Shown here piece by piece: positions 2,895 to 33,206 of a stretch of DNA of 43,082 bases. Numbering within the stretch: position 1 is the first letter of the stretch; each line of letters begins with the position of its first letter. The stretch is taken from NCBI GenBank assembly GCA_001805005.1, contig MHDO01000021.1, positions 1 to 43,082 on the forward strand, written 5' to 3'. This DNA is from Nitrospinae bacterium RIFCSPLOWO2_12_39_16 (GTDB lineage Bacteria; Nitrospinota; Nitrospinia; UBA9942). The position numbers and the translations under genes were made by a program. Below the pieces are notes generated by a model that was not told the origin of the DNA, ran no database searches, and worked only from the letters and a program-made list of their open reading frames with translations.

Positions 2895-3004
2895 GGATAT
2901 TATAAAACCACAGAAAACACTGAAGGCACAGAAAAAACCGGTTAAAAATAAATATTTTAATTCAGTGTCTTCAGTGCTTCAGTGGTTTAAATCAGGTCTT
3001 TGTT
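2895..3004 (+). repeat. Gene-boundary hairpin element, copy 1 (CACTGAAG-type arms)
   Basis: 5' GGATATTATAAAACCAC. Left arm 2905-2933 and right arm 2961-2988 match 24/29 as reverse complements. 3' GTGGTTTAAATCAGGTCTTTGTT abuts the antiporter stop. Confidence 0.75.
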
Positions 3005-4145
3005 ATTCCGAATCTAAGATATCTTCCGAGTGAAGAGGCATAAACCATTTCTGTGCAACGAAGGTTGGAATCACCGCACTCGCAATAAGCACACCTGTCA
3101 AAACAGAATACTGCACCTGATTTATAAAACCTGAATTTAAGCCGAATACACTTGCGATTAACCCGAATGTTAAGCCTGTGCTCATTAAAAGTGTTGTATA
3201 AATATTTCCACTGGGAATATATCTCTTTGCAAGGAAGTAAACACCAATAAATTTCATCAATTGTTTTATTACAAAAAAGGCAATGAAAAGCCCGAAAGCT
3301 GACATAATCAATGGAAATGAGACCTTTAAGCCCCCGACAATGAAAAAGAGGGGGGTGATAATTGCAAAGGAAACAGTTCTTAACCTGTTCTTTACGACCT
3401 TCGTCCCGGATGTCTCAGTAAAATGTTTTGACATCATTAGTCCCAAAACGAATGCCGGCAGTATTGCATGCCCCTCTCCTAAATTTGCGAAATAGATGAA
3501 TATCAGTAACAGGAGAAAAATATATTTTATCTCAGGCTCAATTACCTTGTTTTTTAATTTCGGGTTATCAAAGACCTGATGGGAAAATCGGGTTGCCAGT
3601 ATTATTACAAATATGGAAATTATAATAAAGATGAATGTAAATAAGTTTGGTTTTATAAATATGACACTCAATGTAAGTGCAACCCACATATTTGTTATAA
3701 AGGTAGATGCCATGATCAATTTGCCAATCTCTGTTTTTGAAAGATTCGTTTCTATAAGAACTGAGTAAACTACGGCGATAGAGGTTTCTGATAGGGCGGT
3801 AGCGACAATCAAAGATGCAGGAAGGCTCCAGCCTATAACATAGTATGTGTAAAGGAATGCCCCGATAAAAGGAATTAAAAAGGAAAATGCACCAATAAGA
3901 AAGCTCTCTTTAAATTTATCCCTCATTAATCGTGTGTCAATCTCGGCACCTGCCAAAAAGGTTAAAATAATTCCGCCGAAGTTTGCCAGATATAGCATCC
4001 ACTCTTCAGTCTTAAGCCCCAGATTTCCAGAGACAGCCCCTAAAAGAATCTCTATTATTGCTACTGATATACCAATTCTTAATGAAATAAGGCTTGAGAA
4101 AAAGACTAATAAGCCAACAATTAGTGGGGTAAAATCCGCCTTCAA
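3003..4145 (-). CDS. Cation:proton antiporter (Na+/H+ exchanger family, CPA2-like)
   Basis: 380 aa, about 11-12 TM helices, FLAGAEID motif. TTG start at 4145 is supported by SD GGGAGG 6 nt upstream. Confidence 0.85.
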   Translation of the reverse strand: MKADFTPLIVGLLVFFSSLISLRIGISVAIIEILLGAVSGNLGLKTEEWMLYLANFGGIILTFLAGAEIDTRLMRDKFKESFLIGAFSFLIPFIGAFLYTYYVIGWSLPASLIVATALSETSIAVVYSVLIETNLSKTEIGKLIMASTFITNMWVALTLSVIFIKPNLFTFIFIIISIFVIILATRFSHQVFDNPKLKNKVIEPEIKYIFLLLLIFIYFANLGEGHAILPAFVLGLMMSKHFTETSGTKVVKNRLRTVSFAIITPLFFIVGGLKVSFPLIMSAFGLFIAFFVIKQLMKFIGVYFLAKRYIPSGNIYTTLLMSTGLTFGLIASVFGLNSGFINQVQYSVLTGVLIASAVIPTFVAQKWFMPLHSEDILDSE

Positions 4146-4238
4146 GATTAACCTCCCTTTTTTGAAATTTGTAGGAGTTATCAGCCATTAAGGCGGTTAA
4201 AGGTGAACTCCATCACCTCCTTTTAAGAAAGGGGCTTT

Positions 4239-4790
4239 TTAAAGTATCATTGCTAACTTTTTGGATATTTCCTCTTTTGTCAGCATACCTATGAAACTGT
4301 CTTTCACAAGGCCGTTTCTATCTATGAAGAAGCTCATTGGTATTCCAAATACCCTATAGGCATCGCTGGTAGTTCCGTCAATATCCAGTAAGATTGGGTA
4401 TGTCATCTTATAATCCTTTGCAAATTTAGATACCTTTGATTCATTTTCCTTTATGTTGACCCCGAGGATTACAAGCCCATTATCCTTATTTTCATCATAA
4501 CCTTTCTGGAGGTCGGGTATCTCCTCTCTGCAGGGGTGGCACCATGTTGCCCAGAAATTAATTATAACCGCCTTCCCCTTAAAACTGCTTAACTTTACAT
4601 CATTGCCGTTTAAGTCCTTCAATGTGAAATCCTGTGCAGGTTTTGGTTCGGAGGCTTGAGATTTTTTTTCTTCCTGTGAAATATCTGCTGATTTATTGCT
4701 ATCACAATTAAACGGCATGATAATCAATAATAGAAAGGCAAGAATTAATTTTAAACTTTGAATTTTGAACTTTGAGCTTTTATTATTCAT
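4239..4790 (-). CDS. TlpA/ResA-like periplasmic thiol:disulfide oxidoreductase (canonical WCHPC)
   Basis: FWATWCHPCREEIPDL thioredoxin-fold CXXC, signal anchor LILAFLLLIIMPF. ATG at 4790 overlaps the upstream stop (ATGA, 4787-4790) and has SD GGAGGG 6 nt upstream. The track start at 4823 is less likely. Confidence 0.85.
   Translation of the reverse strand: MNNKSSKFKIQSLKLILAFLLLIIMPFNCDSNKSADISQEEKKSQASEPKPAQDFTLKDLNGNDVKLSSFKGKAVIINFWATWCHPCREEIPDLQKGYDENKDNGLVILGVNIKENESKVSKFAKDYKMTYPILLDIDGTTSDAYRVFGIPMSFFIDRNGLVKDSFIGMLTKEEISKKLAMIL
4747..4781. repeat. Heptanucleotide array AATTTTG/AACTTTG x5
   Basis: AATTTTA AACTTTG AATTTTG AACTTTG AGCTTTT. Encodes SSKFKIQSLKLI of TlpA. Confidence 0.85.
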
Positions 4791-5608
4791 ATTCCCTCCG
4801 GATATACAATGGGTAAATCCCACCTGAATATTCTATCATCTTTTGTAGCCAGATTTCTTATTATCAGCTCAAAATATTCTGCCTTATCATCGAGTATCTC
4901 TTTTTTAAATTTTACTATCCCCTCCCTGTGATGCTTATCCCATGCCTCAAACCTCAGCTCCCATCCTTTATTTGCAGGATATTCTTTATTATTTACCCTC
5001 AGGTAGGATAATTCATCCAGAGGATAATTCTCAAGCCTGCCGTCATGAACATTTAAACTTATTATAAATACTATGTTATTTTCAACATCATATTTTTTTA
5101 TCAGGTCAGGTGCACCTATAGATTTAAGGTATTCGGATGTGGTGTATGTAATATCAGCATATACATCTCCATATCCCATATCATTCCTCCATAAGAGCCT
5201 TTGAATCTGTTTTACTATTCTATAAGGCAGATTAGACTGCGGGACTGGATAGGTTTCTTTTAAATAATTTGTTATAACATCTGCCTCTTTACTGGTCATC
5301 TCAACCCCTTTTTCCGCCCTCATCCTGTCCACTACCTCTATCCACCCTGCAGGGGGGAGAAGGACCATTTTTATAACCTCATCCCCGTGGCATTTGCGGT
5401 AACATTTTTGCTGATACAATACCCTCGCCTCTTTTTCGCTCAAATTTTTTATTATGGAGTGTTTGAACATAAATAGCTTTGTTAAACTGTAAACATAATC
5501 AATATCATCCTTAATGCCAGAACCTTCGGAGATTGCAAATAGGATTGCCGGTATGGAAATGGAGGTGGCTATAAGAAAAACAATAGAAATTTTTTTAAAT
5601 AATTTCAT
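4787..5608 (-). CDS. Secreted hypothetical protein with a CX3CH (CYRKCH) putative haem c-type site
   Basis: Signal/anchor MKLFKKISIVFLIATSISIPAILFA. QQKCYRKCHGDEVIKMVLLPPAGWIEVVDRMRAEKGVEMTSKEADVITNYLKETY resembles single-haem binding domains followed by a W..v.RM...g..ls..ea..i..YL helix pair. The motif was verified codon by codon at 5387-5404. Confidence 0.6.
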   Translation of the reverse strand: MKLFKKISIVFLIATSISIPAILFAISEGSGIKDDIDYVYSLTKLFMFKHSIIKNLSEKEARVLYQQKCYRKCHGDEVIKMVLLPPAGWIEVVDRMRAEKGVEMTSKEADVITNYLKETYPVPQSNLPYRIVKQIQRLLWRNDMGYGDVYADITYTTSEYLKSIGAPDLIKKYDVENNIVFIISLNVHDGRLENYPLDELSYLRVNNKEYPANKGWELRFEAWDKHHREGIVKFKKEILDDKAEYFELIIRNLATKDDRIFRWDLPIVYPEGI

Positions 5609-5650
5609 TAATAAAAATCTGTGAAAATCTGTGGTTAAGTTATGTTTTTA
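5609..5650 (+). repeat. Gene-boundary element, right half only
   Basis: AAAATCTGTG x2 then GTGGTTAAGTTATGTTTTTATTC. Lies between the FGE-fold stop and the start of the next gene. Confidence 0.55.
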
Positions 5651-6466
5651 TTCTTTGTAGTCCATCACACATCTGAATCCGTAATCATTAGACTCCATAT
5701 CAGGGCTTTCACCGAGTCTTACAGCGCTTCGGGTGCTGACTGCCGGGCTTAACCATGAGCCCCCTTTAATAACCCTAAGCTCTTTTTCCTTGTCATACCA
5801 TGTATCTGTCCATTCCCAAACATTCCCTGCCATATCATGGACACCATAAGGACTCTTACCCTCTTTATATTTATCCACCTCTGTTGTGCCTCCAAATGTT
5901 ATAGAACCTGATGTCTCCTGTGCAAACTGTCCTACCCTGGCACTCCCGCCCAATCCAGATTCATATGAGTTGCACATTAATGTATCAAATTCATTGCCCC
6001 ACGGATATATCCTTCCATCTGTCCCCCTCGCAGCCTTTTCCCACTCTTCCTCGGTTGGGAGTCTCTTTCCTGCAGATTTGCAGTATTCATTTGACTTATC
6101 CCATTTTATGTTTACTACAGGGTGTCTTGCCCTGTCTGATGGAAAACTATGGTTTGGGTCAAATTTTTTATAGTCAGCATTTGTTACCTCATGGATGTCT
6201 ATATAGAATGGTGGAAGGTTAATTTTCTTCTTAGGTTCTTCATCAGAATACCACTTTGACTTACCGCCTAACTTTTTGACTGTATCTTCTATTTCTGAAG
6301 TATCACTCCCCATTATAAACTCACCGGCAGGTATCAGAACCATCCCTTCCTGGGTTAAGGGAGATTCTGCCGATATTGCAAATTGCAAATTGCAAATTGC
6401 AAAAGTCAAAGTTATACCTAAAAAATATTTTGCTTTAAGTATTTTTCTGTGTAAATCTGTGTTCAT
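5648..6466 (-). CDS. FGE-sulfatase (SUMF1/EgtB/PvdO) fold protein, secreted, lacking the FGE catalytic Cys pair
   Basis: MVLIPAGEFIMGS, YIDIHEVTNADYKKF, AGKRLPTEEEWEKAARGTDGRIYPWGN, GNVWEWT, RVIKGGSWLS, GFRCV. No Cys between GGSW and GFRC. The N-terminus is encoded by repeat DNA, so the start is uncertain. Confidence 0.85.
   Translation of the reverse strand: MNTDLHRKILKAKYFLGITLTFAICNLQFAISAESPLTQEGMVLIPAGEFIMGSDTSEIEDTVKKLGGKSKWYSDEEPKKKINLPPFYIDIHEVTNADYKKFDPNHSFPSDRARHPVVNIKWDKSNEYCKSAGKRLPTEEEWEKAARGTDGRIYPWGNEFDTLMCNSYESGLGGSARVGQFAQETSGSITFGGTTEVDKYKEGKSPYGVHDMAGNVWEWTDTWYDKEKELRVIKGGSWLSPAVSTRSAVRLGESPDMESNDYGFRCVMDYKE
6375..6402. repeat. Heptanucleotide array ATTGCAA x4
   Basis: Exact 4 x 7 nt. 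Encodes FAICNLQFAI in the FGE-fold protein N-terminus. Confidence 0.9.
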
Positions 6467-6497
6467 CTGTGGTTAATTAGGTTTTTGTTTTTCCTTT
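6444..6497 (+). repeat. Gene-boundary element, right half only; 3' terminus forms the CcmH-like C-terminus
   Basis: TTTCTGTG TAAATCTGTG TTCATCTGTG GTTAATTAGGTTTTTGTTTTTCCT. The last 21 nt are identical to 41498-41518. Confidence 0.7.
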
Positions 6498-6950
6498 TTC
6501 TAAAAAATCCAGCACCCCTGTTATTATTAGATATAATACACCTGACCATACGAAGACAAGGGCAATGAAAAGGGCTATATCACTTATCGGATAGCCCCCC
6601 CTTGTGATTTGATACCATTTTCCATGTATTCTCTGCAGTGGTGTAAGCATTGACTCTTTTCCAAACCGCTTAAAAAAGTATCCCTCAATCTCATCCTTGC
6701 CTGCACCTGCCATCAGCCTTTTTCCTATCATATCCTTCCATTCCATTCCGCAGCTCATATGACAGTCTTCAAGGACCATCGGGCATTCACACGGGCAGGC
6801 AATGTTATGGGATATGCCCATCACAGTATCCGCAGCAGCAGAAGGCCAGAAGACATATTTTATAACAGAGAAGATAATTATAATTGATAAAGATAGAAGG
6901 AATATTTTTATTTTCATCTTGAAATTAATGAAATTATAAAATTTAGCCAC
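6477..6950 (-). CDS. CcmH/NrfF-like membrane-anchored protein with atypical Cys cluster
   Basis: IACPCECPMVLEDCHMSCGMEWKDMIGKRLMAGAGKDEIEGYFFKRFGKESMLTP followed by a TM helix. The layout matches CcmH (Cys motif, then an i..mv..G.sd.eI..yfv.rYG..vl..P helix), but the usual LRCxxC is replaced. The start may be ATG 6917 (MKIKIFLL) rather than GTG 6950. Confidence 0.55.
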   Translation of the reverse strand: MAKFYNFINFKMKIKIFLLSLSIIIIFSVIKYVFWPSAAADTVMGISHNIACPCECPMVLEDCHMSCGMEWKDMIGKRLMAGAGKDEIEGYFFKRFGKESMLTPLQRIHGKWYQITRGGYPISDIALFIALVFVWSGVLYLIITGVLDFLEKGKTKT

Positions 6951-7094
6951 AGACTTTCACGGACTAAAATATTAAAAAAACAATAATTAGGAGAAAGGGG
7001 GCATTTTCTTTTTTTCCTAATTTCTCCATTTCTCCTTAATCTTTTTATTTGTTTTTGGTCTGTGCGAGTCTGTGGCTAATCAATCTTTGTTCTT
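6921..7094 (+). repeat. Gene-boundary hairpin element with G5/C5 core
   Basis: 5' GAAATTATAAAATTTAGCCACAGACTTTCACGGACT. Core AGGAGAAAGGGGG...TTCTCCTTAATCTTTT. Right arm GGTCTGTGCGAGTCTGTGGCTAATCAATCTTTGTTCTT. Confidence 0.8.
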
Positions 7095-7882
7095 AATCTG
7101 CGTATAATTACAAATGCAATTAATATTACAATGCCTATACCGAGCAGCCATATCCCTTTTCTCCTTTCAATCAAGTCCTGTTTTGACATTGCAGAGAATT
7201 TTATATCTACGGAAGGCATAGTATCATCTTTAGCATATTTAATCTTAAATCTTACATCCTGTCCACCTTTTATATCCTTGAAAGTATAGTTATAATAATT
7301 TAAATCCTTCTTATTGACCTTGCTCATTGGCTCTGGTGAAAGCTTAAATTCTGTTGACCTCAGTGGCTCCTGAATGCTTACCTCAAGTGTATCTATCGGG
7401 TATATTAGTTTTATAATATATTCAAAGTCCCTAAGAAATCTGCCCGATTTTATATTAAACGGAGAGTATTTAAAATCTATGAAGAAATCGGCGTATGGAA
7501 GCTTTACGGATGTCTCGTTGTATTCGCCCTTATTAACAATATTATATAGCTGGCAAAAGTGCTGTCCCCCAGGAGAGAGGCTGCATACATCTGTTAGTTT
7601 TGTTACACCCTTTGGCAATGTAAATGTCACCTGATTTGGAAAGGCATCTTTATCGGCAAATTTCCCTTCATATACCACAAGGACATCAGATGATTCATAT
7701 TCAGGCATTATTGAAACCTTCATTCTACCTATTTTAAGGTCAGAAGCATTAGAAACAGTGACGAGTGACAAGTGACAAGTGACCAGTAAAAATAAAAAAC
7801 CACTGATTGCTGACCACTGACCACTGACCACTCTCTTCTGTCCTCTGTCTTCTGTCTTCTGTCTTCTGTCTTCAGTGTTCAT
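7076..7882 (-). CDS. Hypothetical exported protein with C-terminal membrane anchor
   Basis: Long ORF in an operonic position. N-terminal region RRQKTEDRGQKR + FLFLLVTCHLSLVTVSNA-SD resembles a signal peptide, but it is encoded by heptamer arrays. Beta-rich body, C-terminal TM IWLLGIGIVILIAFVII + RRLR. ATG 7882 is preceded by GGGGTGG. Confidence 0.6.
   Translation of the reverse strand: MNTEDRRQKTEDRGQKRVVSGQWSAISGFLFLLVTCHLSLVTVSNASDLKIGRMKVSIMPEYESSDVLVVYEGKFADKDAFPNQVTFTLPKGVTKLTDVCSLSPGGQHFCQLYNIVNKGEYNETSVKLPYADFFIDFKYSPFNIKSGRFLRDFEYIIKLIYPIDTLEVSIQEPLRSTEFKLSPEPMSKVNKKDLNYYNYTFKDIKGGQDVRFKIKYAKDDTMPSVDIKFSAMSKQDLIERRKGIWLLGIGIVILIAFVIIRRLRTKID
7757..7876. repeat. Three adjacent heptanucleotide tandem arrays
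   Basis: AGTGACN x4 (7757-7787), CACTGAC-type x4 (7801-7832), CTTCTGT-type x6 (7835-7876). Confidence 0.9.
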
Positions 7883-8567
7883 GTAATAACCACCCCACAA
7901 GGTAACTTTTATATATTGTCATCCAGTTTGCCAATATCAGGATTGACATGGTGATAAGTAGCCCGCCGCTGATACGCTGGACTATATTTCTAATATTTTT
8001 TAAGCCGTCAACAGATAAGGTTTTTGAAATTGTAAGTCCTGCAATACTAAATGCAGTGGAGATGCCGAGAGAATAAAAACTGAGCATCACTGTCCCCCTA
8101 TATACTGTTTCAGATGACTTGGTAAGGTTGTAAATAGATGTCAGGGTTGGTGTTACACAGGGTTGATACGCCATTGCAAAGGAAAATCCAATTAAAAGCC
8201 CGCCAAATCTCCTATAGTATTTCCCTTTGTCTTCAGCTATACGAAATAGTCCGATAAAGTAAAGACCCATTAACAAGAGAAATACACCGCCAAATTGATT
8301 TAAGATAGTTAAATATCCGAAAATTATATTACTGATGGATGTAGCAGAAGCACCCAAAATTATATAACCTGCCATAAATCCTATAAGACACAATATACCC
8401 CCTGTAATTATATCTGATAACGCCTCTACCCATTTTCTATCCCCGATTTCTATCATTGTCAGCCCTATGATATAAGCCAAGAAAAATGGTGTCACCTGAA
8501 AGAGACAGAAAAACCAAATAGAGAAGAAGTTATGCAGACCGCCTATATATGCTTCAAAAATAGTCAT
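7872..8567 (-). CDS. CcdA/DsbD-family cytochrome c biogenesis thiol-reductant transporter
   Basis: 231 aa, six TM helices, with Cys in TM1 (FFCLFQVTPFF) and TM4 (YQPCVTPTL), as in the CcdA C..P pattern. Confidence 0.75.
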   Translation of the reverse strand: MTIFEAYIGGLHNFFSIWFFCLFQVTPFFLAYIIGLTMIEIGDRKWVEALSDIITGGILCLIGFMAGYIILGASATSISNIIFGYLTILNQFGGVFLLLMGLYFIGLFRIAEDKGKYYRRFGGLLIGFSFAMAYQPCVTPTLTSIYNLTKSSETVYRGTVMLSFYSLGISTAFSIAGLTISKTLSVDGLKNIRNIVQRISGGLLITMSILILANWMTIYKSYLVGWLLHEH

Positions 8568-8571
8568 AAAA

Positions 8572-8613
8572 GTCAGAAGTCAGAAGACAGATTTTCTGTT
8601 CTCTGTCCTCTGA
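8572..8613. repeat. Inverted heptamer arrays forming an intercistronic hairpin
   Basis: GTCAGAA GTCAGAA GACAGA - ttt - TCTGTTC TCTGTCC TCTGA. Spans the thioredoxin-fold stop, 5 nt from the CcdA start. Confidence 0.75.
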
Positions 8614-9241
8614 TTTTTTCTATCCTTTCCGAGATTTCTTCATATTTTTTTAATTTACCAACAAAGATAGAATCTATCTTTCCTTCTTTATTGATAAAAA
8701 TCGTAGTTGGAGTCGTTGCCACTCCATAGCCCCTTGCGACTTCCTGTTTTAAGTCAAACCCTGCAGGGAATTTGAGTTTATGCTTGTCTAAAAATTTAGA
8801 CAGGTCTGTTTCATTATCCTGAATACCTATGCCTATTAAGTTAACTCCGCTGAATTCTTCAGATGCCTGTTTCAGAAATTGTGCAGATGCATTGGAGCAT
8901 GGGCACCAGTTTGCATAGAAAAACATTACCATTGGCTTCCCATCCCCGCCTGAACCCTCGTGATGATGGGCATGGTTAGGGGAAAAGTTGAATGTTTTGC
9001 CATCTACCAATTTTAGGGAAAAATTTGGGGCTTTATCTCCTACCTTGAGGAGCGTTATTGGAGGGGTATAATTTAATATACCCCTTAAAACAAGGGCAAC
9101 AGCAACAAGGATTACAATTTTGTTAATCTGAAATGATTCACTTATTGGTGCCCCTCTTTCAATGGAGGTGTCCACTTTCTGCTCCAAGTCCTTCACTCTG
9201 GTATGTTCCTTTAACTTTAGTTCCGCTCTTTCTAAGGGCAT
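8573..9241 (-). CDS. Thioredoxin-fold (TlpA/redoxin-like) protein with CXC active site (WCPC) and His-rich insert
   Basis: VMFFYANWCPCSNASAQF read directly from the DNA (tgg tgc cca tgc). HAHHHEGSGGDGK lies just upstream. TM anchor IVILVAVALVL. cis-Pro region GVATTPTTIFI. The 5' end overlaps the upstream ORF by 83 nt, so the start is uncertain. Confidence 0.8.
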   Translation of the reverse strand: MPLERAELKLKEHTRVKDLEQKVDTSIERGAPISESFQINKIVILVAVALVLRGILNYTPPITLLKVGDKAPNFSLKLVDGKTFNFSPNHAHHHEGSGGDGKPMVMFFYANWCPCSNASAQFLKQASEEFSGVNLIGIGIQDNETDLSKFLDKHKLKFPAGFDLKQEVARGYGVATTPTTIFINKEGKIDSIFVGKLKKYEEISERIEKIRGQRTENLSSDF

Positions 9242-9710
9242 ATTCTATTTTCCTTTTTTCTATTGGTGTATTAGAGAGGTCAATCAAAATTTTGTTATTA
9301 CCAATCAGTTTTAACAGGTCATCTTTTCTGAAATCCCCTTCCCAGTTTCCAACCCATGCATTCCATGTCTGAACAATAGCAGATGCCTGATAATCTGTAA
9401 TATCAAAAAATTTCTTGTGAGGCTCCCTTGCCCTGTACTCTTCAAGGAATTTTCGCATGTGCGGGACTACTGCTATAAAGGGTGGTCCGCACCTGTGGCA
9501 ATATTTTAAAATCCTTTCCGTGTCATGGCACTGCGTGCATTTCTCTGTAGCCAATGCCTTTGCATCATCAGGGGAGTATTCCATATACCCCCTTGCCTTT
9601 ATCTCTTCGGTTATCTTTTTGCCAATACTATTGGGAACAGCCATCACCAGTGTGAACCCTGCAAGGATTACAACAAATATACTTATAAAAATTATAGTTT
9701 TCTTTTTCAT
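9159..9710 (-). CDS. Membrane-anchored c-type cytochrome (one CXXCH)
   Basis: Signal anchor MKKKTIIFISIFVVILAGFTLVMA. CTQCHD haem motif, plus a second Cys pair KYCHRCGPP. Confidence 0.7.
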   Translation of the reverse strand: MKKKTIIFISIFVVILAGFTLVMAVPNSIGKKITEEIKARGYMEYSPDDAKALATEKCTQCHDTERILKYCHRCGPPFIAVVPHMRKFLEEYRAREPHKKFFDITDYQASAIVQTWNAWVGNWEGDFRKDDLLKLIGNNKILIDLSNTPIEKRKIEYALRKSGTKVKGTYQSEGLGAESGHLH

Positions 9711-9753
9711 GTTATACCCCCCTTTAAACCTGACTTATTGTTTACTATAATAT

Positions 9754-9762
9754 ATTATAACA
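9754..9762 (-). promoter_or_regulatory. Candidate extended -10 promoter (TGTTATAAT) for the minus-strand redox/cytochrome cluster
   Basis: Plus-strand ATTATAACA is TGnTATAAT on the minus strand, about 45 nt upstream of ATG 9710. RBS AAAGGGGGG lies in between. Confidence 0.35.
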
Positions 9763-9866
9763 GAATGATATGTGAATTTAACAGATTATTTAGCTGCTGC
9801 CCCTCCCCTTATTTAAGGAGAGGCAGCAACTTGTTGAGGGAAGGAGGGAAAAAGACTAATTAACTC

Positions 9867-9898
9867 GTTTAAATATTTAAACAAATAATTATTTGTTT
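9867..9898. promoter_or_regulatory. Two overlapping perfect palindromes in the divergent control region
   Basis: GTTTAAATATTTAAAC (9867-9882, 16 bp) and AAACAAATAATTATTTGTTT (9879-9898, 20 bp) are each exactly self-complementary. Confidence 0.4.
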
Positions 9899-9936
9899 TT
9901 ATTCCCAAAGATGTTATTTTTCTTATATATTAAATT

Positions 9937-9951
9937 TGGTATGTAGTTTGC
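9937..9951 (+). promoter_or_regulatory. Sigma-54-like -24/-12 motif (TGGTAT-N5-TTGC), doubtful
   Basis: TGGTATGTAGTTTGC has correct GG-N10-GC spacing. However, the GC is only 21 nt from ATG 9972, so the predicted TSS would remove the SD. Confidence 0.25.
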
Positions 9952-9971
9952 TTTTCTAAAGGAGAAAAAAG

Positions 9972-11408
9972 ATGGATGAGGATATGAATAAAATTATTAT
10001 CATAGATGATGATGAGTCTATCTGTAAGACATTGGAGCTCCATCTAAAGAGAAACGGATACGATGTCAGTTTTGCACATACAGGTGGTGAGGGGATAAAG
10101 ATGGTAAGCGAGAATGAACCCCAGATTGTCATACTTGATATAAGGCTTCCTGATACAGATGGGATTGAGGTTTTAAGGCAGCTTAAATCTATAGACAATA
10201 ATAAATATATAATCATGATTACAGCATTTCAGGATATGGAGACTACAATAAAGGCTATGCAGGAAGGGGCTTTTGAGTATATCCATAAGCCCATAAGCAT
10301 AGATGAATTGGACAGGGCAGTGGATAATGCAGTGAGGAGCCTTAAGATACTTACAGGGGAAAGGGAAGAGACCATAAAGATACCGAAGATGAATGTTGGC
10401 GAGGGGAAGATAATCGGAAAGAGCAAGATTATGAAAGAGATATTCAAGACAATCGGTGTTGTCTCTCAGAGCAGGACAACTGTCCTGATTGAAGGGGAGA
10501 GCGGGACAGGGAAGGAGTTAATAGCGAAGGCTATCCATTTTAATAGTCCGTATAAGGGGTATCCGTTTATATCCATCAATTGTTCCGCCCTTGTAGAGAC
10601 ACTCCTTGAGAGCGAGCTTTTCGGGCATGAAAAGGGGGCGTTTACAGGGGCTTTATACCGTAAAGACGGAAAATTTACACTTGCCAATAACGGCACGCTT
10701 TTCATGGATGAGATTGGAGAGATGAGTTTAAATCTACAGACAAAACTTCTAAGAGTCCTGCAGGAGAGGGAGTTTGAGAGGGTGGGGGGGAAGGAGAAGA
10801 TAAAGACAAATGTGAGGGTCATAACAGCCACGAATAAAAAACTTGATAATCTGGTGAAACAGGGAAAATTCAGGGAAGACCTTTATTACAGGCTGAAGGT
10901 GGTAACTATTGATGTCCCCCCGTTGAGGGAGAGAAAGGAAGATATACCGTTGCTTGTGGAATATATGATTAACAAAGTGAATAATGACCTTAGTAGAAAT
11001 GTGAGGAAAATATCAAATAAGGCACTTGAACTTTTACTGAATAATCCGTGGGTTGGAAATGTCAGGGAGCTTGAAAATGTAATTACAAGGGCTATTCTTC
11101 TTTCAAGAGAGGATAGGCTCGGCGAAGAGCATTTTACCCTGTTTTTAAAGGGGGATACAGGCAAACCAATAGAACATAAATTAGTGGTGGATGCTAATGG
11201 AGTGCGTGGGCATGAAATAAAAGATGATTCGTTAAATGACATTGAGAAGATACACATAGCGAAGGTGTTGAATTTTACAAACTGGCATAAGGGGAAGGCT
11301 TGTGAAATTCTTGGAATAACAAGGCCAAGATTGGAGAGGAAGATAAGAAAATATGACATTAAATCAGTGGAAAAAATATCAGAAAAAATATCAGAAAAAA
11401 TAACTTGA
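9972..11408 (+). CDS. Sigma-54-dependent response regulator (REC - AAA+ - Fis-type HTH), NtrC family
   Basis: REC (IIIIDDDES...ILDIRLPDTDG). Walker [15 protein letters not shown] loop in [16 protein letters not shown]-terminal HTH KACEILGITRPRLERKIRKY. SD AAGGAG 7 nt upstream of the ATG. Confidence 0.95.
   Translation: MDEDMNKIIIIDDDESICKTLELHLKRNGYDVSFAHTGGEGIKMVSENEPQIVILDIRLPDTDGIEVLRQLKSIDNNKYIIMITAFQDMETTIKAMQEGAFEYIHKPISIDELDRAVDNAVRSLKILTGEREETIKIPKMNVGEGKIIGKSKIMKEIFKTIGVVSQSRTTVLIEGESGTGKELIAKAIHFNSPYKGYPFISINCSALVETLLESELFGHEKGAFTGALYRKDGKFTLANNGTLFMDEIGEMSLNLQTKLLRVLQEREFERVGGKEKIKTNVRVITATNKKLDNLVKQGKFREDLYYRLKVVTIDVPPLRERKEDIPLLVEYMINKVNNDLSRNVRKISNKALELLLNNPWVGNVRELENVITRAILLSREDRLGEEHFTLFLKGDTGKPIEHKLVVDANGVRGHEIKDDSLNDIEKIHIAKVLNFTNWHKGKACEILGITRPRLERKIRKYDIKSVEKISEKISEKIT
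11364..11402 (+). repeat. 12-nt tandem repeat TCAGAAAAAATA x2 plus one 15-nt variant unit (3 units)
   Basis: Encodes the C-terminal SVEKISEKISEKIT tail of the sigma-54 activator. Confidence 0.85.
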
Positions 11409-11514
11409 CTTTTATTTTGAGTGTGGATAGTATTACCACTCATTGGCAGAGCTATAAAATTTTACTAATAACAAATTTCAAAAGGCGGGATAGATTTAAA
11501 ATACCGTCAAAGTA

Positions 11515-11562
11515 TTGAACATTTTGTTTGAATGAAATATAGCATATAAATAAAATGTTCAA
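11515..11562. promoter_or_regulatory. 11-bp perfect inverted repeat, candidate enhancer (UAS) for the sigma-54 activator
   Basis: TTGAACATTTT (11515-11525) and AAAATGTTCAA (11552-11562) are separated by 26 nt. The centre lies about 105 nt upstream of the -24 element. Confidence 0.35.
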
Positions 11563-11644
11563 GCAAAAAGGTGCTCTTTGGTTTTGTAAGTAAGTATATA
11601 GTTGATTTTTCAAATAGAAAAATGGCTTTATATAGTAAGTATTG

Positions 11645-11660
11645 TGGTATAAGGATTGCA
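11645..11660 (+). promoter_or_regulatory. Candidate sigma-54 promoter for the secreted cytochrome c gene
   Basis: TGGTATAAGGATTGCA has GG (11646-11647) and GC (11658-11659) separated by 10 nt with a TTGCA -12 box. It lies 157 nt upstream of ATG 11817 and directly downstream of a sigma-54 activator gene. Confidence 0.5.
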
Positions 11661-11816
11661 ATTATTCCACTTAATGTTGAATTATACAATAATTAAGGTT
11701 GTCATAATATAAAAATTCAAATAGAAAGGAGGTGAATGTTGGTTAGTTAGTTGTTAAATGAGGATGTTTTAGTTAATTAGGTTGGGGGAAATTATTTGAA
11801 GAGGAGGATAAAAAAT

Positions 11817-12944
11817 ATGGGCAAAGGGAAATGGATAATGTTGTTAATAGCAATTTTTACAATCAGCGTCTCTGTGGAAACGGCTATCTCTACAAAGGCA
11901 TTCGCAGCAAAGATATCTAAAGAAGAGTTGGAAAAGGCTAAGAAAGAAGGGGATCAGTCTGATGCAGCATTGGAAAAGGCGAGAGAGAGTTACGGAAGAG
12001 AGGCTGATGAGGCAAATGTTGAGTCCTTTGAGACAAAGACAACTGTAAAAGGGTCAGGTAAGTCCGTTTACGGTGTAACAGGTTTTGATTATCTAACAGG
12101 TATTGGTAAGATGGCGTCTACAGTTGAAGGGACAGAAAGTGCAAAGAACAATCCATTGGTAGGTCAGATTAACAAGAGATGGGCAACTAAATGGACTGCC
12201 AAGAGTAAGGACTTAAGTAAAGTGGGCGAATCTCGTTCTGGTTGGGCAAAAGAGACAGGAGTTACAGAGGCATGGGATAGAAAGGTAAAAGGAGCATCAA
12301 CATTGGGTGGTGATTATAACGAATGGGTAAATCAATGGAACAGCCTGACAAGACCGGAATCAGCAACAGGAGAAACCACTGTTGCAGGTGCTGACCCTGC
12401 ACAGGGTGCCCACTGGTTCAGCTTTTTCTGTGTTCACTGCCATGGATGGAGCGGAAAGGGAGATGGTCCTACAGCAGCAATGTTAGACCCAAGGCCAAGG
12501 AACCAGACCAATGGAAAATATATGAACCATGTCAGTAATCTTGAGATCTTTGCAGTTATAAAGGGTGGTGGTCCTGCAAGGAACCTTTCAGAGGCAATGC
12601 CTGCATGGGGCAATGTCCTTCAGGATCAGGACATCTGGAATGTAGTAGCATTCATGCGATCCATTGCAAAACCAACATATAATGCAAAATCAGAAGAGGG
12701 CAATGTTACAGCAGCCAATGCAAAGGATAGTTCTGAATTTAAAGACCTCAATGAACAGCTTGAACTTGAGGGCACAATGGGTGGAAGAGGCTCAGGAATG
12801 GCTGGAGGGTATAGTTCTCCTGGCGGCGGCAGATTGGCAAGCAGGCTGGTAGGAGTGAGGACAAAGGGTAGCGCAAAGGATGAATCTGCAAGGATTGGTG
12901 ATAGTGAGTTTACAAGGACTTCTGTAAAGGAGACTGATAAGTAA
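11817..12944 (+). CDS. Secreted protein with C-terminal class I c-type cytochrome domain
   Basis: Signal peptide MGKGKWIMLLIAIFTISVSVETAISTKAFA. FCVHCHGWSGKGDGP haem site and AMPAWG distal Met. SD GAGGAGG 9 nt upstream of ATG 11817 (the track TTG 11796 is less likely). Confidence 0.85.
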   Translation: MGKGKWIMLLIAIFTISVSVETAISTKAFAAKISKEELEKAKKEGDQSDAALEKARESYGREADEANVESFETKTTVKGSGKSVYGVTGFDYLTGIGKMASTVEGTESAKNNPLVGQINKRWATKWTAKSKDLSKVGESRSGWAKETGVTEAWDRKVKGASTLGGDYNEWVNQWNSLTRPESATGETTVAGADPAQGAHWFSFFCVHCHGWSGKGDGPTAAMLDPRPRNQTNGKYMNHVSNLEIFAVIKGGGPARNLSEAMPAWGNVLQDQDIWNVVAFMRSIAKPTYNAKSEEGNVTAANAKDSSEFKDLNEQLELEGTMGGRGSGMAGGYSSPGGGRLASRLVGVRTKGSAKDESARIGDSEFTRTSVKETDK

Positions 12945-12965
12945 GTAGTACTGGTTAATTAAAAA

Positions 12966-13013
12966 AACGACCACCTGGAAGCAAATAAGCGTTCAGGTGG
13001 TCGTTCTTTTTTT
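12966..13013 (+). terminator. Rho-independent terminator after the cytochrome c gene
   Basis: 12-bp perfect stem AACGACCACCTG (12966-12977) / CAGGTGGTCGTT (12994-13005), followed by CTTTTTTT. An A-run upstream makes it potentially bidirectional. Confidence 0.85.
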
Positions 13014-13024
13014 GTTTGTACCTA

Positions 13025-13053
13025 TTGACTAAGTTAAGAATATATATTATAGT
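13025..13053 (+). promoter_or_regulatory. Candidate sigma-70 promoter of the ABC-2 operon
   Basis: TTGACT (13025-13030) - 17 nt - TATAGT (13048-13053). Confidence 0.45.
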
Positions 13054-13090
13054 AAATTTAATACCCAGTTTATGGGTATTTTTTATTTTT

Positions 13091-13211
13091 ATATAGGAAA
13101 TTATAAAATTAACCACAGGTAAACACAGATGAACACTGATAGAATAAAGAAAAAAAGTTTTTATCTGTGTTAATCTGTGTCCATCTGTGGTTTCATTAGG
13201 TCTTTGTTCTT
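13091..13211 (+). repeat. Gene-boundary hairpin element (CACAGAT decamer arms), reference copy
   Basis: ATATAGGAAATTATAAAAT-TAACCACAGGTAAACACAGATGAACACTGATAG ... TTATCTGTGTTAATCTGTGTCCATCTGTGGTTTCATTAGGTCTTTGTTCTT. The arms are about 26/32 complementary. Confidence 0.85.
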
Positions 13212-13213
13212 AT

Positions 13214-14158
13214 ATGATAGAAGTAGAAAATCTTACAAAAAAATATGGCAATGCGAGGGGAATTAATGATGTCACCTTTACTGTAGAGAAGGGTGAAATC
13301 CTTGGATTTCTTGGTCCGAATGGTGCCGGCAAGACAACCACTATGAGGATTATCACCTGCTTTATGCCTGCAACAAGCGGAAAGGCGAGGGTTGCGGGTT
13401 TTGATGTCTTTGAGGATTCCCTTGAGGTTAGAAAAAGGATAGGGTATCTTCCAGAGAGTGTTCCCCTTTACACTGATATGCAGGTGCCGGTTTATCTTGA
13501 ATTTGTTGGGGGGTTAAAAGGTGTTGACAGGAGGGATATAAAGAGAAGGGTAGCTCAGGTGATGGATGACTGCGGTTTAAATGCAGTGGCAAAGAAATAT
13601 ATTGCTGAACTTTCCAAGGGTTACAGACAGAGGGTTGGGTTGGCACAGGCACTTATAAATGACCCGGAAGTTCTTATCCTTGATGAACCGACTATTGGAC
13701 TTGACCCAAAGCAGATTATAGAGATAAGGAGTCTTATAAAGGGACTTGGCGGCAAAAGGACAGTTATATTAAGCACACATATCCTGCCAGAGGTTAGTAT
13801 GACCTGTCAGAGGGTCATAATAATAAATGAAGGAAGGCTGGTGGCAGTAGATACACCACAAAACCTTACTGCCCAGCTTCAGAAATCACAGCAGTTTATA
13901 GTGAGGATTGACGGTCCGGAACAAGAGGTCCTATCGGAGATTGGAAAAATAAATACTGTATCAAGGGTTGCAGTTAAAGAGAGCGGGGCAGACGGGATTA
14001 ATTCCTATCTGGTGGAATTTAAGAAAGATTCAGATGGCGGTAAAGATATAGCTCCTGTCATTGTCAGAAAAAATTGGGCATTATATGAGATGCGTCCTAT
14101 AGGGATGAGTCTTGAGGATATATTTATTAAGCTTGTAACAGAAGAGAAGATACACTGA
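13214..14158 (+). CDS. ABC transporter ATP-binding protein (ABC-2 / GldA-like)
   Basis: Walker [10 protein letters not shown], signature LSKGYRQRV, Walker B VLILDEPT. The conventional N-terminus [12 protein letters not shown] begins at ATG 13214. The track extension is repeat-encoded. Confidence 0.95.
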
Positions 14159-14220
14159 TAACTTGCAACTTACAATCTATAACTTAGTTGTCAGTTGTCA
14201 GTTAATAGTTATTATTAATA

Positions 14221-15000
14221 ATGAAAAATTTTTATCTTATATTTCAAAAAGAACTCAGGTCATATTTTAATTCACCAATCGCCTTTGTCGTTATCACCAT
14301 ATTTCTTATAATCTCAGGGTATTTCTTTTATACTATATTTGCCACATTCAGCACCATCAGTTTCCAGGTAATGACCAATCCCATAATGGCGCAGCAGTAT
14401 AATCAGTTAAATATAACAGAGATGGTTGTCAGGCCGTTCTTTGCCAATATAAGCCTCTTCATGCTCATAATGCTGCCAATGCTTACAATGAGGATATTTT
14501 CTGAAGAGAAGAAGAGTGGAACGATAGAACTCCTGCTGACATACCCTGTAAAAGACTCTGAGGTTATACTTGGTAAATTTGCCGGTTGTATGGGGATATT
14601 TACTATAATGATTCTCCTCACCCTGCCATGTATATTTCTCATAGAATTGTTTGGTGAGCCTGAGATGGGTGTTGTATTAAGCGGCTATGTGGGGCTGTTT
14701 TTAATGGGGGCAGCGTTTATATCACTTGGGATATTTGCCTCATCCGTTACTGAGAACCAGATTGTGGCTGCCGTTGTATCCTTTGGCTTTCTGCTTATAT
14801 TCTTCATGATGGGCTATTCGGCGGGTTTTGCCAGTGAGACCATAGGAGGTATTTTAAAATATCTGTCTTTTACGCCTCACCTCTACAATTTCGCAAAAGG
14901 TGTCCTTGATACAGAGGATATCATGTATTATTTATTATTTACTCTCTTCTGCATCTTCCTGAATATGAGGTCATTGGAGTCAAAGAGATGGAGAGGATGA
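14221..15000 (+). CDS. ABC-2 type transporter permease (GldF-like)
   Basis: 259 aa, six TM helices. EEKKSGTIELLLTYPV motif typical of ABC-2 permeases. Adjacent to the ATPase. Confidence 0.85.
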   Translation: MKNFYLIFQKELRSYFNSPIAFVVITIFLIISGYFFYTIFATFSTISFQVMTNPIMAQQYNQLNITEMVVRPFFANISLFMLIMLPMLTMRIFSEEKKSGTIELLLTYPVKDSEVILGKFAGCMGIFTIMILLTLPCIFLIELFGEPEMGVVLSGYVGLFLMGAAFISLGIFASSVTENQIVAAVVSFGFLLIFFMMGYSAGFASETIGGILKYLSFTPHLYNFAKGVLDTEDIMYYLLFTLFCIFLNMRSLESKRWRG

Positions 15001-15001
15001 T

Positions 15002-16591
15002 ATGAAAACGATTACTTATATACTCGGTATTATCGGTTTAATCCTGATTTTTGCTGGCGGTATTATATATGCCATTCAGTCAACCCTTAGTATAACTGCT
15101 GCTGTTTTCCTCTGGGTGGGGCTTCTGCTCGTCCTCTTCTTTCTTTATGTAAACTTCTCTGATATAAGGAACTTTATCCTCAAGAGGTCAACCCGCTATG
15201 GGGCAAATATGGCGGTGGTCATAGTGATATTTCTGTGTGTGATTGTCCTCCTCGGTTTTATGTCTGTAAACCGCAAGAAAAGGGTTGACCTTACAAAGAC
15301 AGGCAGATATACCCTGTCAGAGCAGACAATAAAGATTTTAAAATCCCTTAAAAAAGATGTGAAGGCAGTGGCATTTTATAGAAGCGAGGAAGAAACCTAT
15401 CATGCCATGCTGAGACAGAACGCTGAGGACCTGCTCCAGGAATATTCATATCATATACCTAAATTTACCTTTAGATTCATAGACCCCGACAGGAACCCCG
15501 GGCTTGCAATGAAATATGGTGTATCTGAATACAGGATAATTCTCCTGATGGCAGGTGGTAAGCAGGAGAAGATAGGATTTGAGAGTGAGGAGAAGCTTAC
15601 AAATGCCCTTATTAAGGTAACAAGGGATGAGGTTAAAACAATATATTTTGTAAAGGGGCATGGGGAAAATGATATCTCAAGTATTCAGAAACTGGGCTAT
15701 AAGGCGGCGAAGGATGCTGTAGAAAAAGAGAATTATCTTGTAAAGGAACTGCTCCTTATGAATGAGGAGAGGGTGCCGGCGGGTGCATCAGTTGTCATTA
15801 TCTCAGGGCCAAAGAGAGATTTTTTACAGGATGAGTTAGACAAACTAAAAAAATATGTAGAAAATGGCGGGAGCCTATTGGCTATGGTTGACCCCGGGCA
15901 TCCGCTTACAATAAAAAACTTCCTTGCAGGATATGGATTTAAGGTGGGCGACGATGTAATCTTTGATACTCAGAGCCGCGTGTATGGTGCTAATGAATTA
16001 ACCCCTGTTGTATATCAATATGACAAAGACCATCCATTGACATCAGAATTTAATCTTGCAACATATTTTTATCTTGTAGGTACTGTTGATATTGAAAAGG
16101 ATAAAAAGAAAGGTCAATATCAGCTTGCCATGACAGGCCCAAACAGCTGGGCTGAAAAGGATTTAAAAAAGTGGAGCGAAACCGGAGAGGCATCTTTTGA
16201 TGAAGGTAAGGAGAAGAGGGGGCCTTTATCCATTGCTGCAGTAACAACTGTTCCTGTAAAGGGTTCATCTGACGCCGGTGTTGACGAGAGTGGAAAGCTC
16301 AAAGAAGGGAGATTTAAATTCGGCAAAATTATAGCTTTTGGTGATTCCGATTTTGCGAATAATACTAATATCAATCTTGCAGGAAATGGAGAGCTTTTTT
16401 TAAACACTATAGGATGGCTTGCCGAAGAGGCCGACCTTATATCCATAAGAAAAAGAGATGCCAAAAACACACCTGTAACCCTCACAGTTGCACAGGGAAG
16501 GGCAATTTTCTGGATACCTGTAATTGTTATACCTTCTCTGGTGCTTATCTCAGGCATTGGTATATACAGCAGAAGAAGATGGATGAGATGA
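15002..16591 (+). CDS. GldG-like ABC-transporter auxiliary protein
   Basis: N-terminal TM pair and a C-terminal TM. IIAFGDSDFANNTNINLAGNGELFLNTIGWL matches the GldG family signature region. Start is 1 nt after the permease stop. Confidence 0.8.
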   Translation: MKTITYILGIIGLILIFAGGIIYAIQSTLSITAAVFLWVGLLLVLFFLYVNFSDIRNFILKRSTRYGANMAVVIVIFLCVIVLLGFMSVNRKKRVDLTKTGRYTLSEQTIKILKSLKKDVKAVAFYRSEEETYHAMLRQNAEDLLQEYSYHIPKFTFRFIDPDRNPGLAMKYGVSEYRIILLMAGGKQEKIGFESEEKLTNALIKVTRDEVKTIYFVKGHGENDISSIQKLGYKAAKDAVEKENYLVKELLLMNEERVPAGASVVIISGPKRDFLQDELDKLKKYVENGGSLLAMVDPGHPLTIKNFLAGYGFKVGDDVIFDTQSRVYGANELTPVVYQYDKDHPLTSEFNLATYFYLVGTVDIEKDKKKGQYQLAMTGPNSWAEKDLKKWSETGEASFDEGKEKRGPLSIAAVTTVPVKGSSDAGVDESGKLKEGRFKFGKIIAFGDSDFANNTNINLAGNGELFLNTIGWLAEEADLISIRKRDAKNTPVTLTVAQGRAIFWIPVIVIPSLVLISGIGIYSRRRWMR

Positions 16592-16596
16592 AAGAG

Positions 16597-16670
16597 TTTC
16601 AAGCTTCAAGTTTCATGTTATAAATCACGATTTTCAAATCTTGCAACTTGCATCTTGCAACCTGCAACTT
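16597..16670. repeat. Heptamer arrays TTTCAAG x3 and CTTGCAA x4
   Basis: 16597-16617 and 16640-16670, between GldG-like and DUF4340-like genes. Confidence 0.8.
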
Positions 16671-16675
16671 TCGTT

Positions 16676-18040: not shown

Positions 18041-18068
18041 TATTTTAAATTTAATTTAAAAATGTATG

Positions 18069-18203
18069 AAACCACAGATGGACACAGATTTACACAGACA
18101 AAAAATCATATAAGGGGAAAGGGGGGGGAATTTTTCTCCCCTATTCTCCAAATCCCCCTTTTCTCCTTAATCTTTTAGTTTCTGTGTTTATCTGTGGCTA
18201 ATA
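18069..18203 (+). repeat. Gene-boundary hairpin element with G8/C5 core
   Basis: AAACCACAGATGGACACAGATTTACACAGAC ... TAAGGGGAAAGGGGGGGG ... TCCCCCTTTTCTCCTTAATCTTTTAGTTTCTGTGTTTATCTGTGGCTAAT. Shares TTCTCCTTAATCTTTT and TCTGTGGCTAAT with 6921-7094. Confidence 0.8.
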
Positions 18204-18252
18204 AATAATTGGGGTTGAAAGTTTCATCAAGGCGAGACTTTAAGGAGCTAAA

Positions 18253-19276: not shown

Positions 19277-19278
19277 AA

Positions 19279-19390
19279 CCAGAAGAACAAAGACTTAATG
19301 AAACCACAGATTACACAGATTTTCACAGATTTCTAAAAAAATATTTTGTTTTAATCTGCGGCAATCTGCGAATATATAATTTCCTATACA
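19279..19390 (-). repeat. Gene-boundary hairpin element, inverted orientation
   Basis: The reverse complement reads TGTATAGGAAATTATATA-TTCGCAGATTGCCGCAGATT...ATCTGTGAAAATCTGTGTAATCTGTGGTTTCATTAAGTCTTTGTTCTTCTGG. It is collinear with 13091-13211. Confidence 0.8.
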
Positions 19391-19398
19391 TTCAAATA

Positions 19399-19866: not shown

Positions 19867-19873
19867 ACATGGT

Positions 19874-19922: not shown

Positions 19923-19931
19923 TCGGTATAT

Positions 19932-32118: not shown

Positions 32119-33206
<1,088 letters not shown>

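Follow-up and report, generated by a model that had tools for sequence, protein, structure and literature searches.

Tandem heptanucleotide arrays are read in frame as predicted signal peptides, loops and tails in a groundwater lineage of Nitrospinota

We analyzed a 43,082-nucleotide stretch of DNA (referred to as the window) from Nitrospinae bacterium RIFCSPLOWO2_12_39_16, namely contig MHDO01000021.1 (C21) of a 1.88-Mb metagenome-assembled genome (MAG) that is 73% complete and has a G+C content of 38.8%, with respect to the tandem arrays of 7-nucleotide (nt) units that are dispersed over it. Comparative analysis showed that arrays of this kind behave as translated, frame-locked segments, that they take the place of the ordinary signal peptides of distant homologues, and that the units and copy numbers have been replaced between close relatives. 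In our judgement the arrays are, with good probability, lineage-specific heptanucleotide simple-sequence repeats that are tolerated as fast-evolving filler and whose reading frame is kept by selection. Those of the window fall into three classes, comprising translated N-terminal arrays, in-frame loop or linker arrays and non-coding intergenic arrays. The first class occurs in four proteins that are predicted to be exported, with starts at 4790, 6466, 7882 and 22129, and we describe it mainly for the gene that starts at 7882 (the focal gene).

The focal gene (7076–7882, minus strand) encodes a conserved, predicted exported protein with a C-terminal membrane anchor, for which no Pfam family was found. 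Its three arrays, on the minus strand, are located between the stop codon (TGA 7872–7874) of a DsbD_TM-like gene and the conserved body of the focal gene. The focal gene starts at the ATG 7882, sharing 11 nt with the upstream gene, and its frame remains open through all three arrays. The first array (7835–7876) forms the n-region at codons 3–16 and consists of about six units that read AGACAGA in the sense direction and are translated as RQKTEDR (identity at a lag of 7 nt, hereafter lag-7 identity, 0.91), with the last, imperfect unit containing the TGA stop of the upstream gene. The middle array (7801–7832) has about 4.5 units of sense GGTCAGT, giving VVSGQWS (lag-7 identity 0.80), and the hydrophobic-core array (7757–7787) has about 4.4 units of sense GTCACTT, giving LVTCHLS (lag-7 identity 0.92). 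A non-repeat cleavage region, VSNA/SD, follows the hydrophobic core. For comparison we used three genomes of the same genus (G001–G003), all of them groundwater 'Nitrospinota bacterium' MAGs whose syntenic DNA is 87–90% identical to the window. The n-region array is also present in G002 and G003, the middle array is exactly 21 nt (three units) longer than in G002, and the site of the hydrophobic-core array is occupied by a CTCATTG array (LLIAHCS) in G002, G003 and G004 and by a CTTCTGT array (LSSVFCL) in G007. Overall, an array-built leader was present at the same place in five genomes of the window's family (f1), with a charged part made of RQKTEDR, RSQKSEV or GGGGCAA-type units.

We compared the focal protein with 13 distant homologues, which came from other Nitrospinota families, Nitrospirae, Gallionella, Burkholderiales and others. 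Immediately ahead of the conserved GRMKV(S/T)IMPEY block, every one of them has an ordinary signal peptide of the Sec or lipoprotein type, and no 7-nt periodicity was seen in any of these 13 signal peptides. Since the distant homologues have their signal peptide at the site of the arrays, the focal protein appears to need one exactly there.

A search of a large protein collection further returned 21 close homologues from many metagenomes (66–98% identity). Counted from the conserved ATG, these natural alleles show 19 distinct leaders in 13 length classes of 38–62 codons, all of them in frame, and none of the roughly 21 alleles was frameshifted. The leaders are assembled from different modules, and the module of the middle array (7801–7832 in the window) recurs next to different hydrophobic partners. 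The stretch between the conserved ATG and an internal GTG measures 10, 17 or 25 codons, where the step from 10 to 17 codons amounts to exactly three units, which argues that translation starts at the ATG and not at the GTG. Three homologues had been called from internal starts (L104, L105 and L106). L104 is in frame from the ATG despite its call from an internal Met; its hydrophobic core (L104:1050–1195) is a TTACTTC array of nine units, and the gene caller had skipped the entire in-frame leader. L105 has an assembly gap, and L106 is taken up below. We also considered two proteins called from an internal Met (P0019 and P0020) as candidate 'off' alleles and rejected them, since one of them can be read in frame starting at the upstream ATG and the other has an assembly gap. 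Some of the focal leaders additionally carry an insert that is not heptameric, PEACPEQSRRV, between their n-region arrays (L106:1–111, protein P0009), which resembles a small repeat element of another kind that is translated in frame.

The frame is locked across the window. Every array cluster was aligned to the syntenic DNA of the three same-genus genomes, and the coding clusters differed in length by −3 and −3 nt at 4747–4781 (G002, G003), by −21 and −12 nt at 7757–7873, by +18, −15 and −27 nt at 22142–22235 (G002, G003, G001), by +9, +9 and 0 nt at 27530–27614, and by 0 nt throughout at 27075–27119 and 29280–29304. For the intergenic clusters the differences were +11, +11, +35, −4, +42, +16, −41, +41, +45, +110, 0, −1, +1 and −41 nt, among them +11, +11 and +35 nt at 8572–8613 and −1, +1 and −41 nt at 32115–32190. 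Non-zero differences were therefore multiples of three in 9/9 coding cases versus 2/13 intergenic ones (Fisher's exact p ~1e-4 by our own arithmetic, on relatives that are not independent). The frame was kept even where units and copy numbers had been replaced outright between relatives.

Start sites and the nature of the encoded peptides were consistent with translation as well. Among the genome's 66 genes with N-terminal arrays, the best Shine-Dalgarno match (at least 5 nt) was upstream of the arrays in 26 and downstream in 2, compared with an internal-codon background of 10.6% and a rate of 42% in ordinary genes. Arrays starting no more than 12 codons from the start had a mean hydropathy of −1.26 and a net charge of +0.97 per heptad, whereas later N-terminal arrays had a mean hydropathy of +1.06, with 31/49 hydrophobic (p = 8.6e-9, early versus late). 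Mid-ORF arrays averaged −0.71, and only 3/85 were hydrophobic. Stops on both strands were found in 14 of the 24 strictly intergenic arrays, compared with 15% expected. An N-terminal hydrophobic segment was present in 53/65 genes with N-terminal arrays versus 653/1818 genes overall. The original prediction had held that the arrays encode signal peptides, tails and linkers, which was supported for the n- and h-regions of four window genes, for loops in one long gene and for C-terminal tails, but not for every array.

Period-7 arrays were identified with Tandem Repeats Finder (TRF) and a check of the lag-7 identity. The same prediction had counted at least 17 strict 7-nt arrays in the window. We confirmed the period for 15 of the 17, with lag-7 identities of 0.69–1.00, so that several are imperfect and not strict. 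The remaining two failed: 19874–19922 is an imperfect palindrome between two genes (lag-7 identity 0.38, not reported by TRF), and 35728–35800 is an intergenic spacer with a 6-nt array, CAGTGT x4.5, at 35729–35756 (TRF; lag-7 identity 0.21). Four further period-7 arrays had been absent from the list (14186–14203, 25156–25189, 29657–29688 and 32115–32148). The peptides that had been quoted were correct, namely VTCHLSLVT, FAICNLQFA, the CTTCTGT-derived hydrophobic run at 22193–22240 and RQKTEDR from the complementary strand at 7835–7876. When only arrays of at least three copies were counted, the window had 12 at period 7 versus 0–1 at each other period from 4 to 10, and no such period-7 array arose in 100 mononucleotide and 100 block shuffles of the window.

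The preference extends to the whole genome, with 248 arrays at period 7 versus 43, 8, 23, 22 and 2 at periods 4, 5, 6, 8 and 9, respectively, and no other period from 4 to 12 exceeding 43. These period-7 arrays comprise 101 different units and are 21–54 nt long, with 3–8 copies. A network linking all units by single-base steps was near chance percolation with 101 units, and nothing was drawn from it. According to home-made gene calls, which make the classes approximate, 87 arrays lie in the first 60 codons after the first possible start, 85 deeper inside open reading frames (ORFs), 35 at or over stop codons, 26 ahead of the first possible start (in most cases by no more than a few codons) and 24 strictly between genes. 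Approximately 70% of the arrays are inside ORFs, and about 50 of the 248 are intergenic or upstream of the first possible start. Array density was 13–43 per 100 kb in genera g1–g3 of family f1 versus 0–4 per 100 kb in the fourth genus of f1 and in six other families, as judged from small samples.

Three further loci of the window have N-terminal arrays. At 4747–4781 (minus strand) an imperfect array of sense AAAGTTC-like units gives the K-rich n-region, codons 4–15, of a TlpA-like thioredoxin (4239–4790), and a GGAGGG Shine-Dalgarno site and the ATG at 4790 lie upstream of it. At 6375–6402 (minus strand) four ATTGCAA units lie in the hydrophobic core of the leader of a protein with a sulfatase domain of the formylglycine-generating enzyme (FGE) type (5648–6466); this array is kept in G002 and G003, and in G001 an ordinary hydrophobic core is followed by a different array (CTTCAGC). 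At 22142–22240 (plus strand) two arrays make up the leader of a second FGE-sulfatase-domain protein (22129–23052), with TTCAAGA x4 as the charged part (codons 5–14) and seven CTTCTGT-type units as the hydrophobic part (codons 22–37), preceded by a conserved AGGAGGTGA Shine-Dalgarno site and the ATG at 22129. Across four genomes the 22142 site carries TTCAAGA, TACAAGA, TTTCAAA or only ~1.5 copies. By inspection, all four window leaders have the shape of a Sec-type signal peptide: the n-region is positively charged, the hydrophobic core spans about 10–20 residues, and positions −3 and −1 are occupied by small residues (for example VSNA/SD and AISA/ES).

In-frame loop and linker arrays are found in the ORF at 26886–29633, which encodes a 915-aa fused membrane/spermidine-synthase protein (Pfam). 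At 27075–27119 (plus strand) ATTCAGA x2 followed by ATCCGCA x4 forms an in-frame insertion of ~18 aa between membrane helices. Neither genus g3 (G005) nor four genomes of other families have this insertion, and different array-encoded inserts are present at the same spot in genera g4 and g2. Three abutting arrays (AGTCAGC, AAGCAAG and AAGACAA; 27530–27619, plus strand) encode the hydrophilic central loop, for which the sequence of G002 and G003 is unrelated and longer by 9 nt. A linker array of four CTCCCAA-type units (29275–29309, plus strand) precedes the C-terminal helical region.

The non-coding arrays between genes are often inverted pairs that fold into strong hairpins, and they can provide genes with a stop codon, a protein tail or a start codon. 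The inverted pair at 8572–8613 (minus strand) lies between two genes and gives the last ~12 codons and the stop of a thioredoxin-like ORF (8573–9241), which has other tails in relatives; the RNA of 8566–8620 folds with −20.4 kcal/mol (z −4.4). At 16597–16670 (plus strand), TTTCAAG and CTTGCAA arrays lie upstream of the true start of a DUF4340 gene, ATG 16676. Their length differs by +16 and −41 nt in relatives and the downstream ATG-AAA-TAT-TTC is conserved despite these changes, so the TTG start at 16655 given in the ORF list is spurious. The hairpin at 32115–32190 (plus strand) is an inverted pair of CTCATAG-like and CTATGAG units with a T7 loop that overlaps the upstream stop, and its last unit contains the obg start codon (32184). 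It folds with −45.3 kcal/mol (z −9.2) and is absent in G001.

How could such arrays come to serve as protein segments? On the reading that we favour, their emergence and turnover would be fast in a single family of groundwater Nitrospinota, and they would persist wherever the encoded product is tolerated. Between genes any unit would be allowed, and inside genes only stop-free units with a frame-preserving total length would survive, at loosely constrained places. Purine-rich units just after the start codon would then yield K/R-rich n-regions, pyrimidine-rich units ~15–35 codons in would yield L/F/C/S-rich hydrophobic cores, and hydrophilic units would yield loops, linkers and tails. Together with a non-repeat cleavage region, the n-region and core arrays would make Sec-type signal peptides, presumably cleaved after export. 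We infer actual export and cleavage, as well as the lack of any switching role, from the sequences. The arrays may originate through replication slippage followed by homogenisation or recombination. Unit variants that differ by single bases and are homogenised within an array suggest local slippage and turnover, and the wholesale replacement of units together with the mosaic leaders points to recombination as well. Loss of mismatch repair was considered as a cause and rejected, as MutS (PF00488) and MutL (PF01119) are present in this genome and in 6/7 other genomes of the family. The MutL ORF itself (639 aa, contig C145) carries arrays at 6507–6545 and 6696–6730 (RSQKTED- and KSEIRNQ-type), just downstream of the DNA_mis_repair domain (6141–6503); these probably fall in a flexible linker, and housekeeping genes are hit too.

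Several points weigh against this reading. Translation, export and cleavage are all argued from sequence. The focal start has a weak Shine-Dalgarno site (GGTGG), and its call depends on this site and on the frame lock. One focal allele, L106 (914-nt contig), has an in-frame TGA within its n-region array. Its translation could begin only at the GTG that immediately precedes the hydrophobic core, and n-region arrays may therefore be dispensable. As to the proposed origin by slippage, each unit of some replaced arrays is changed at 3 of its 7 positions (GTCACTT versus CTCATTG, for instance), a pattern that recombination would explain better than point mutation plus homogenisation. The gene set behind the genome-wide classes comes from a home-made caller (1972 genes, 89% coding). 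Finally, only ~8% (53/653) of the genes with an N-terminal hydrophobic segment carry an array of at least three copies, so that the word 'systematic', which had been applied to the use of arrays as coding N-termini, goes too far.

Two related proposals give the arrays a more active part. According to the first, complementary heptamer arrays would be a ready-made generator and replacer of export signals, in which intergenic hairpins are captured as new Sec leaders and swapped between alleles or genes. The purine-rich arm of an inverted pair would supply the K/R-rich n-region and its pyrimidine-rich complement the hydrophobic core, and the mRNA hairpin might also tune the translation of exported proteins. 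The focal orthologues show both states: two leaders fold strongly (z −7.2 and −7.8) into a hairpin whose purine-rich arm, from the n-region, is paired to the pyrimidine-rich arm of the hydrophobic part, and the window's own leader is non-pairing (z +0.4). We regard this proposal as less likely than not. The second, somewhat more doubtful, sees the arrays as arms of small mobile or recombining hairpin cassettes, with leaders exchanged between genes or alleles as ready-made modules. Adjacent arrays are indeed inverted complements in 9/41 pairs when at most one mismatch is allowed and in ~22/41 with at most two, versus ~9% expected by our own estimate; the 8566–8620 hairpin has a 43-nt copy, 95% identical, on contig C14; and the mosaic natural alleles and the two hairpin leaders described above would also be accounted for. 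However, the similarity of the four window leaders to other places in the genome ends at the arrays (23–48 nt), with no shared flanks or target duplications, and neighbouring unit variants differ by single bases homogenised within the array (TTCAAGA, TACAAGA and TTTCAAA at one site), as would fit local turnover. Cassette exchange and local slippage are compatible processes and do not exclude each other.

A regulatory role, in which the arrays would be binding sites or RNA structures controlling translation or transcript stability, as proposed for the TAACTGA repeats that lie just upstream of start codons in Beggiatoaceae, seems unlikely. The intergenic inverted arrays fold far better than shuffled sequences (z −4.4 and −9.2) and abut start or stop codons, but the coding leaders and loops of the window (7745–7885, 22125–22245 and 27525–27625) fold no better than shuffles (z −0.25 to +0.56), a single protein would hardly recognise 101 different units, and arrays are gained, lost and replaced at the same junction between close relatives.

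The original prediction had instead proposed that the arrays could be contingency loci, in which gain or loss of one 7-nt unit shifts the frame; on this account, slipped-strand mispairing would switch individual exported proteins on or off. The anatomy fits, since the unit is not a multiple of three and the arrays immediately follow the start codon at the 5′ end of the coding region, and Neisseria opa and Escherichia coli K1 neuO are published precedents (PMC3960869, PMC3046976). Nonetheless, all orthologues in G001–G003 are in frame and 19 different focal leaders have accumulated among ~21 natural alleles with no frameshift and one in-frame stop. The arrays are short (3–8 units) and often imperfect, and the same arrays occur in the loops of housekeeping genes and between genes. 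Where assembled (Logan) contigs of four other metagenome runs bridge the arrays (8572–8613, 16597–16670 and 22142–22240), they contain no 7-nt indels or gaps, although this is weak evidence, as contigs drop rare variants. Phase variation therefore found no support in these comparisons and is quite improbable. More improbable still is that all arrays are non-coding 5′ leaders or spacers made of stop-free units open in all three frames, with true starts downstream: this holds for 16597–16670, for 32115–32190 (whose arm at 32154–32190 gives only the obg start), for the intergenic hairpin at 8572–8613 and for the 26 arrays upstream of the first possible start, and the stop in L106 would agree with it, but as a general explanation it is already refuted by the signal peptides of distant homologues exactly at the array site, the frame lock in 9/9 coding clusters and 19 natural leaders, the Shine-Dalgarno sites upstream of arrays, the sorting of hydropathy along the leader and the array that forms an in-frame loop insertion within the 915-aa gene.

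Several known systems share features with the arrays that are most probably tolerated filler here. In neuO of E. coli K1, an AAGACTC repeat begins 2 nt after the ATG, and the gene is on only when the repeat number is a multiple of three (PMC3046976). As in our leaders, a 7-nt unit directly after the start codon is translated as a purine-rich, charged or polar heptad (the poly-psi motif; RLKTQDS in neuO versus RQKTEDR here), and only frame-keeping totals yield a full-length protein. However, neuO is one phage-borne gene with 2–93 copies, measured high-frequency switching and heptads that stay on a cytoplasmic enzyme (PMC3046976), whereas the present genome has hundreds of loci with 3–8 copies, 101 units, predicted cleavable export signals and no out-of-frame allele found. 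The opa genes of Neisseria likewise have a tandem unit that is not a multiple of three within the region coding for the signal peptide, translated as its hydrophobic part (PMC3960869), but this unit is the pentamer CTCTT, a proven switch (~1e-3 per generation) in a family of surface adhesins of a host-adapted pathogen (PMC3960869). Here we found no evidence of switching, and the proteins are predicted to be ordinary periplasmic and redox proteins.

A likeness to the short tandemly repeated repetitive (STRR) sequences of cyanobacteria had also been suggested. The canonical STRR units of heterocystous cyanobacteria are CCCCAGT, TTGGTCA and CAACAGT, of which only CAACAGT is present in our genome (four arrays). 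The comparison is apt as no more than a resemblance: the phylum here is Nitrospinota and most arrays are inside ORFs, sorted by the product that they encode. Among the long simple-sequence repeats (LSSRs) of several bacterial genomes, those with heptanucleotide units are the commonest class (Mrazek et al. 2007, as summarised in PMC4679880), and, as far as that summary goes, LSSRs and STRR sequences share with our arrays the tandem 7-nt units, the many loci per genome, the sporadic phylogenetic distribution and the preference for a length of 7 (PMC4679880). TAACTGA arrays at gene junctions in Beggiatoaceae, cyanobacteria and Bacteroidetes are often only a few nt from a start codon or over an upstream stop, and a few are translated at protein ends (PMC4679880). 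Unlike the arrays described here, they consist essentially of one unit, whose stops cover every frame of one strand and which lies mostly between genes (PMC4679880); our genome contains no exact TAACTGA array, 10 within one mismatch and many stop-free coding units instead.

Selfish or neutral repeat DNA that is read in frame and tolerated at protein peripheries is further known from elements of the Rickettsia palindromic element (RPE) type and from RU-2, which replaces an unrelated signal peptide of homologues, and one signal peptide derived from a miniature inverted-repeat transposable element (MITE) has been described in Yersinia. Those are dispersed elements of 100–170 nt with a fixed sequence, reported as single cases, in contrast to 7-nt tandem units with rapid turnover in dozens of leaders. 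The array at 27075–27119 does form a frame-preserving loop insertion of the RPE-like kind, but a dispersed, fixed-sequence palindromic element is not what we found, as the coding arrays of the window fold no better than shuffles and share only arrays with other loci. The repeats of Borg elements are also fast-evolving, tandem and pervasive in one lineage, and add new peptide segments (PMC9879509); they are described as creating intrinsically disordered regions and, in the part of that paper considered here, are not reported as signal peptides (PMC9879509). In the literature searched we found no paper combining Nitrospinota, groundwater and tandem repeats, and a search on heptamer repeats and signal peptides returned only the comparators named above. 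Within that literature, we found no description of many different heptamer units being translated on a large scale into the n-regions and hydrophobic cores of signal peptides and into loops and tails, and being rapidly replaced with the frame locked.

Other features of the window were noted along the way. No Rfam family matched any array in the window. The only Rfam match there was a fluoride riboswitch (RF01734; 4165–4226, minus strand, 63.3 bits, full length) directly upstream of a multi-pass membrane ORF (3003–4145). A second class of repeats, with a 10-nt period and CACAGA-containing decamers, occurs at gene boundaries (5614–5633, 6446–6471, 13110–13189, 18073–18098 and 19305–19333); its copies recur throughout the genomes of relatives, and the ATG at 6466 sits within one. 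In addition, a perfect 12-nt repeat, GAAAAAATATCA x2.8, is located at 11370–11402 at the end of the ORF 9972–11408, and a 9-nt repeat, GATGGCGGG x3.4, at 32286–32316 in the obg gene (32184–33206).

The arrays have practical consequences for annotation and assembly. Gene callers misplace starts at them, as for L104, which was called from an internal Met, or by choosing spurious TTG starts within arrays, and short-read contigs break at them. Twenty public runs (16 studies) of sediment, soil and groundwater contained DNA near-identical to positions 4001–24000 of the window, and in four of these (X2, X6, X17 and X19) the assembled contigs often break, and the depth rises 5- to 20-fold, at bins that bear arrays or decamers, because different loci have the repeat words in common. 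The arrays also caution that a repeat whose length is not a multiple of three in a 5′ coding region is not automatically a phase-variation switch. The natural alleles of the focal gene, in which one mature protein is preceded by very different leaders, form a library with which the requirements of an export signal could be tested. For this lineage, the arrays suggest that signal peptides, loops and tails are so loosely constrained that, between near relatives, n-regions and hydrophobic cores may be rewritten by 7-base repeat DNA while the shape of an export signal is kept.

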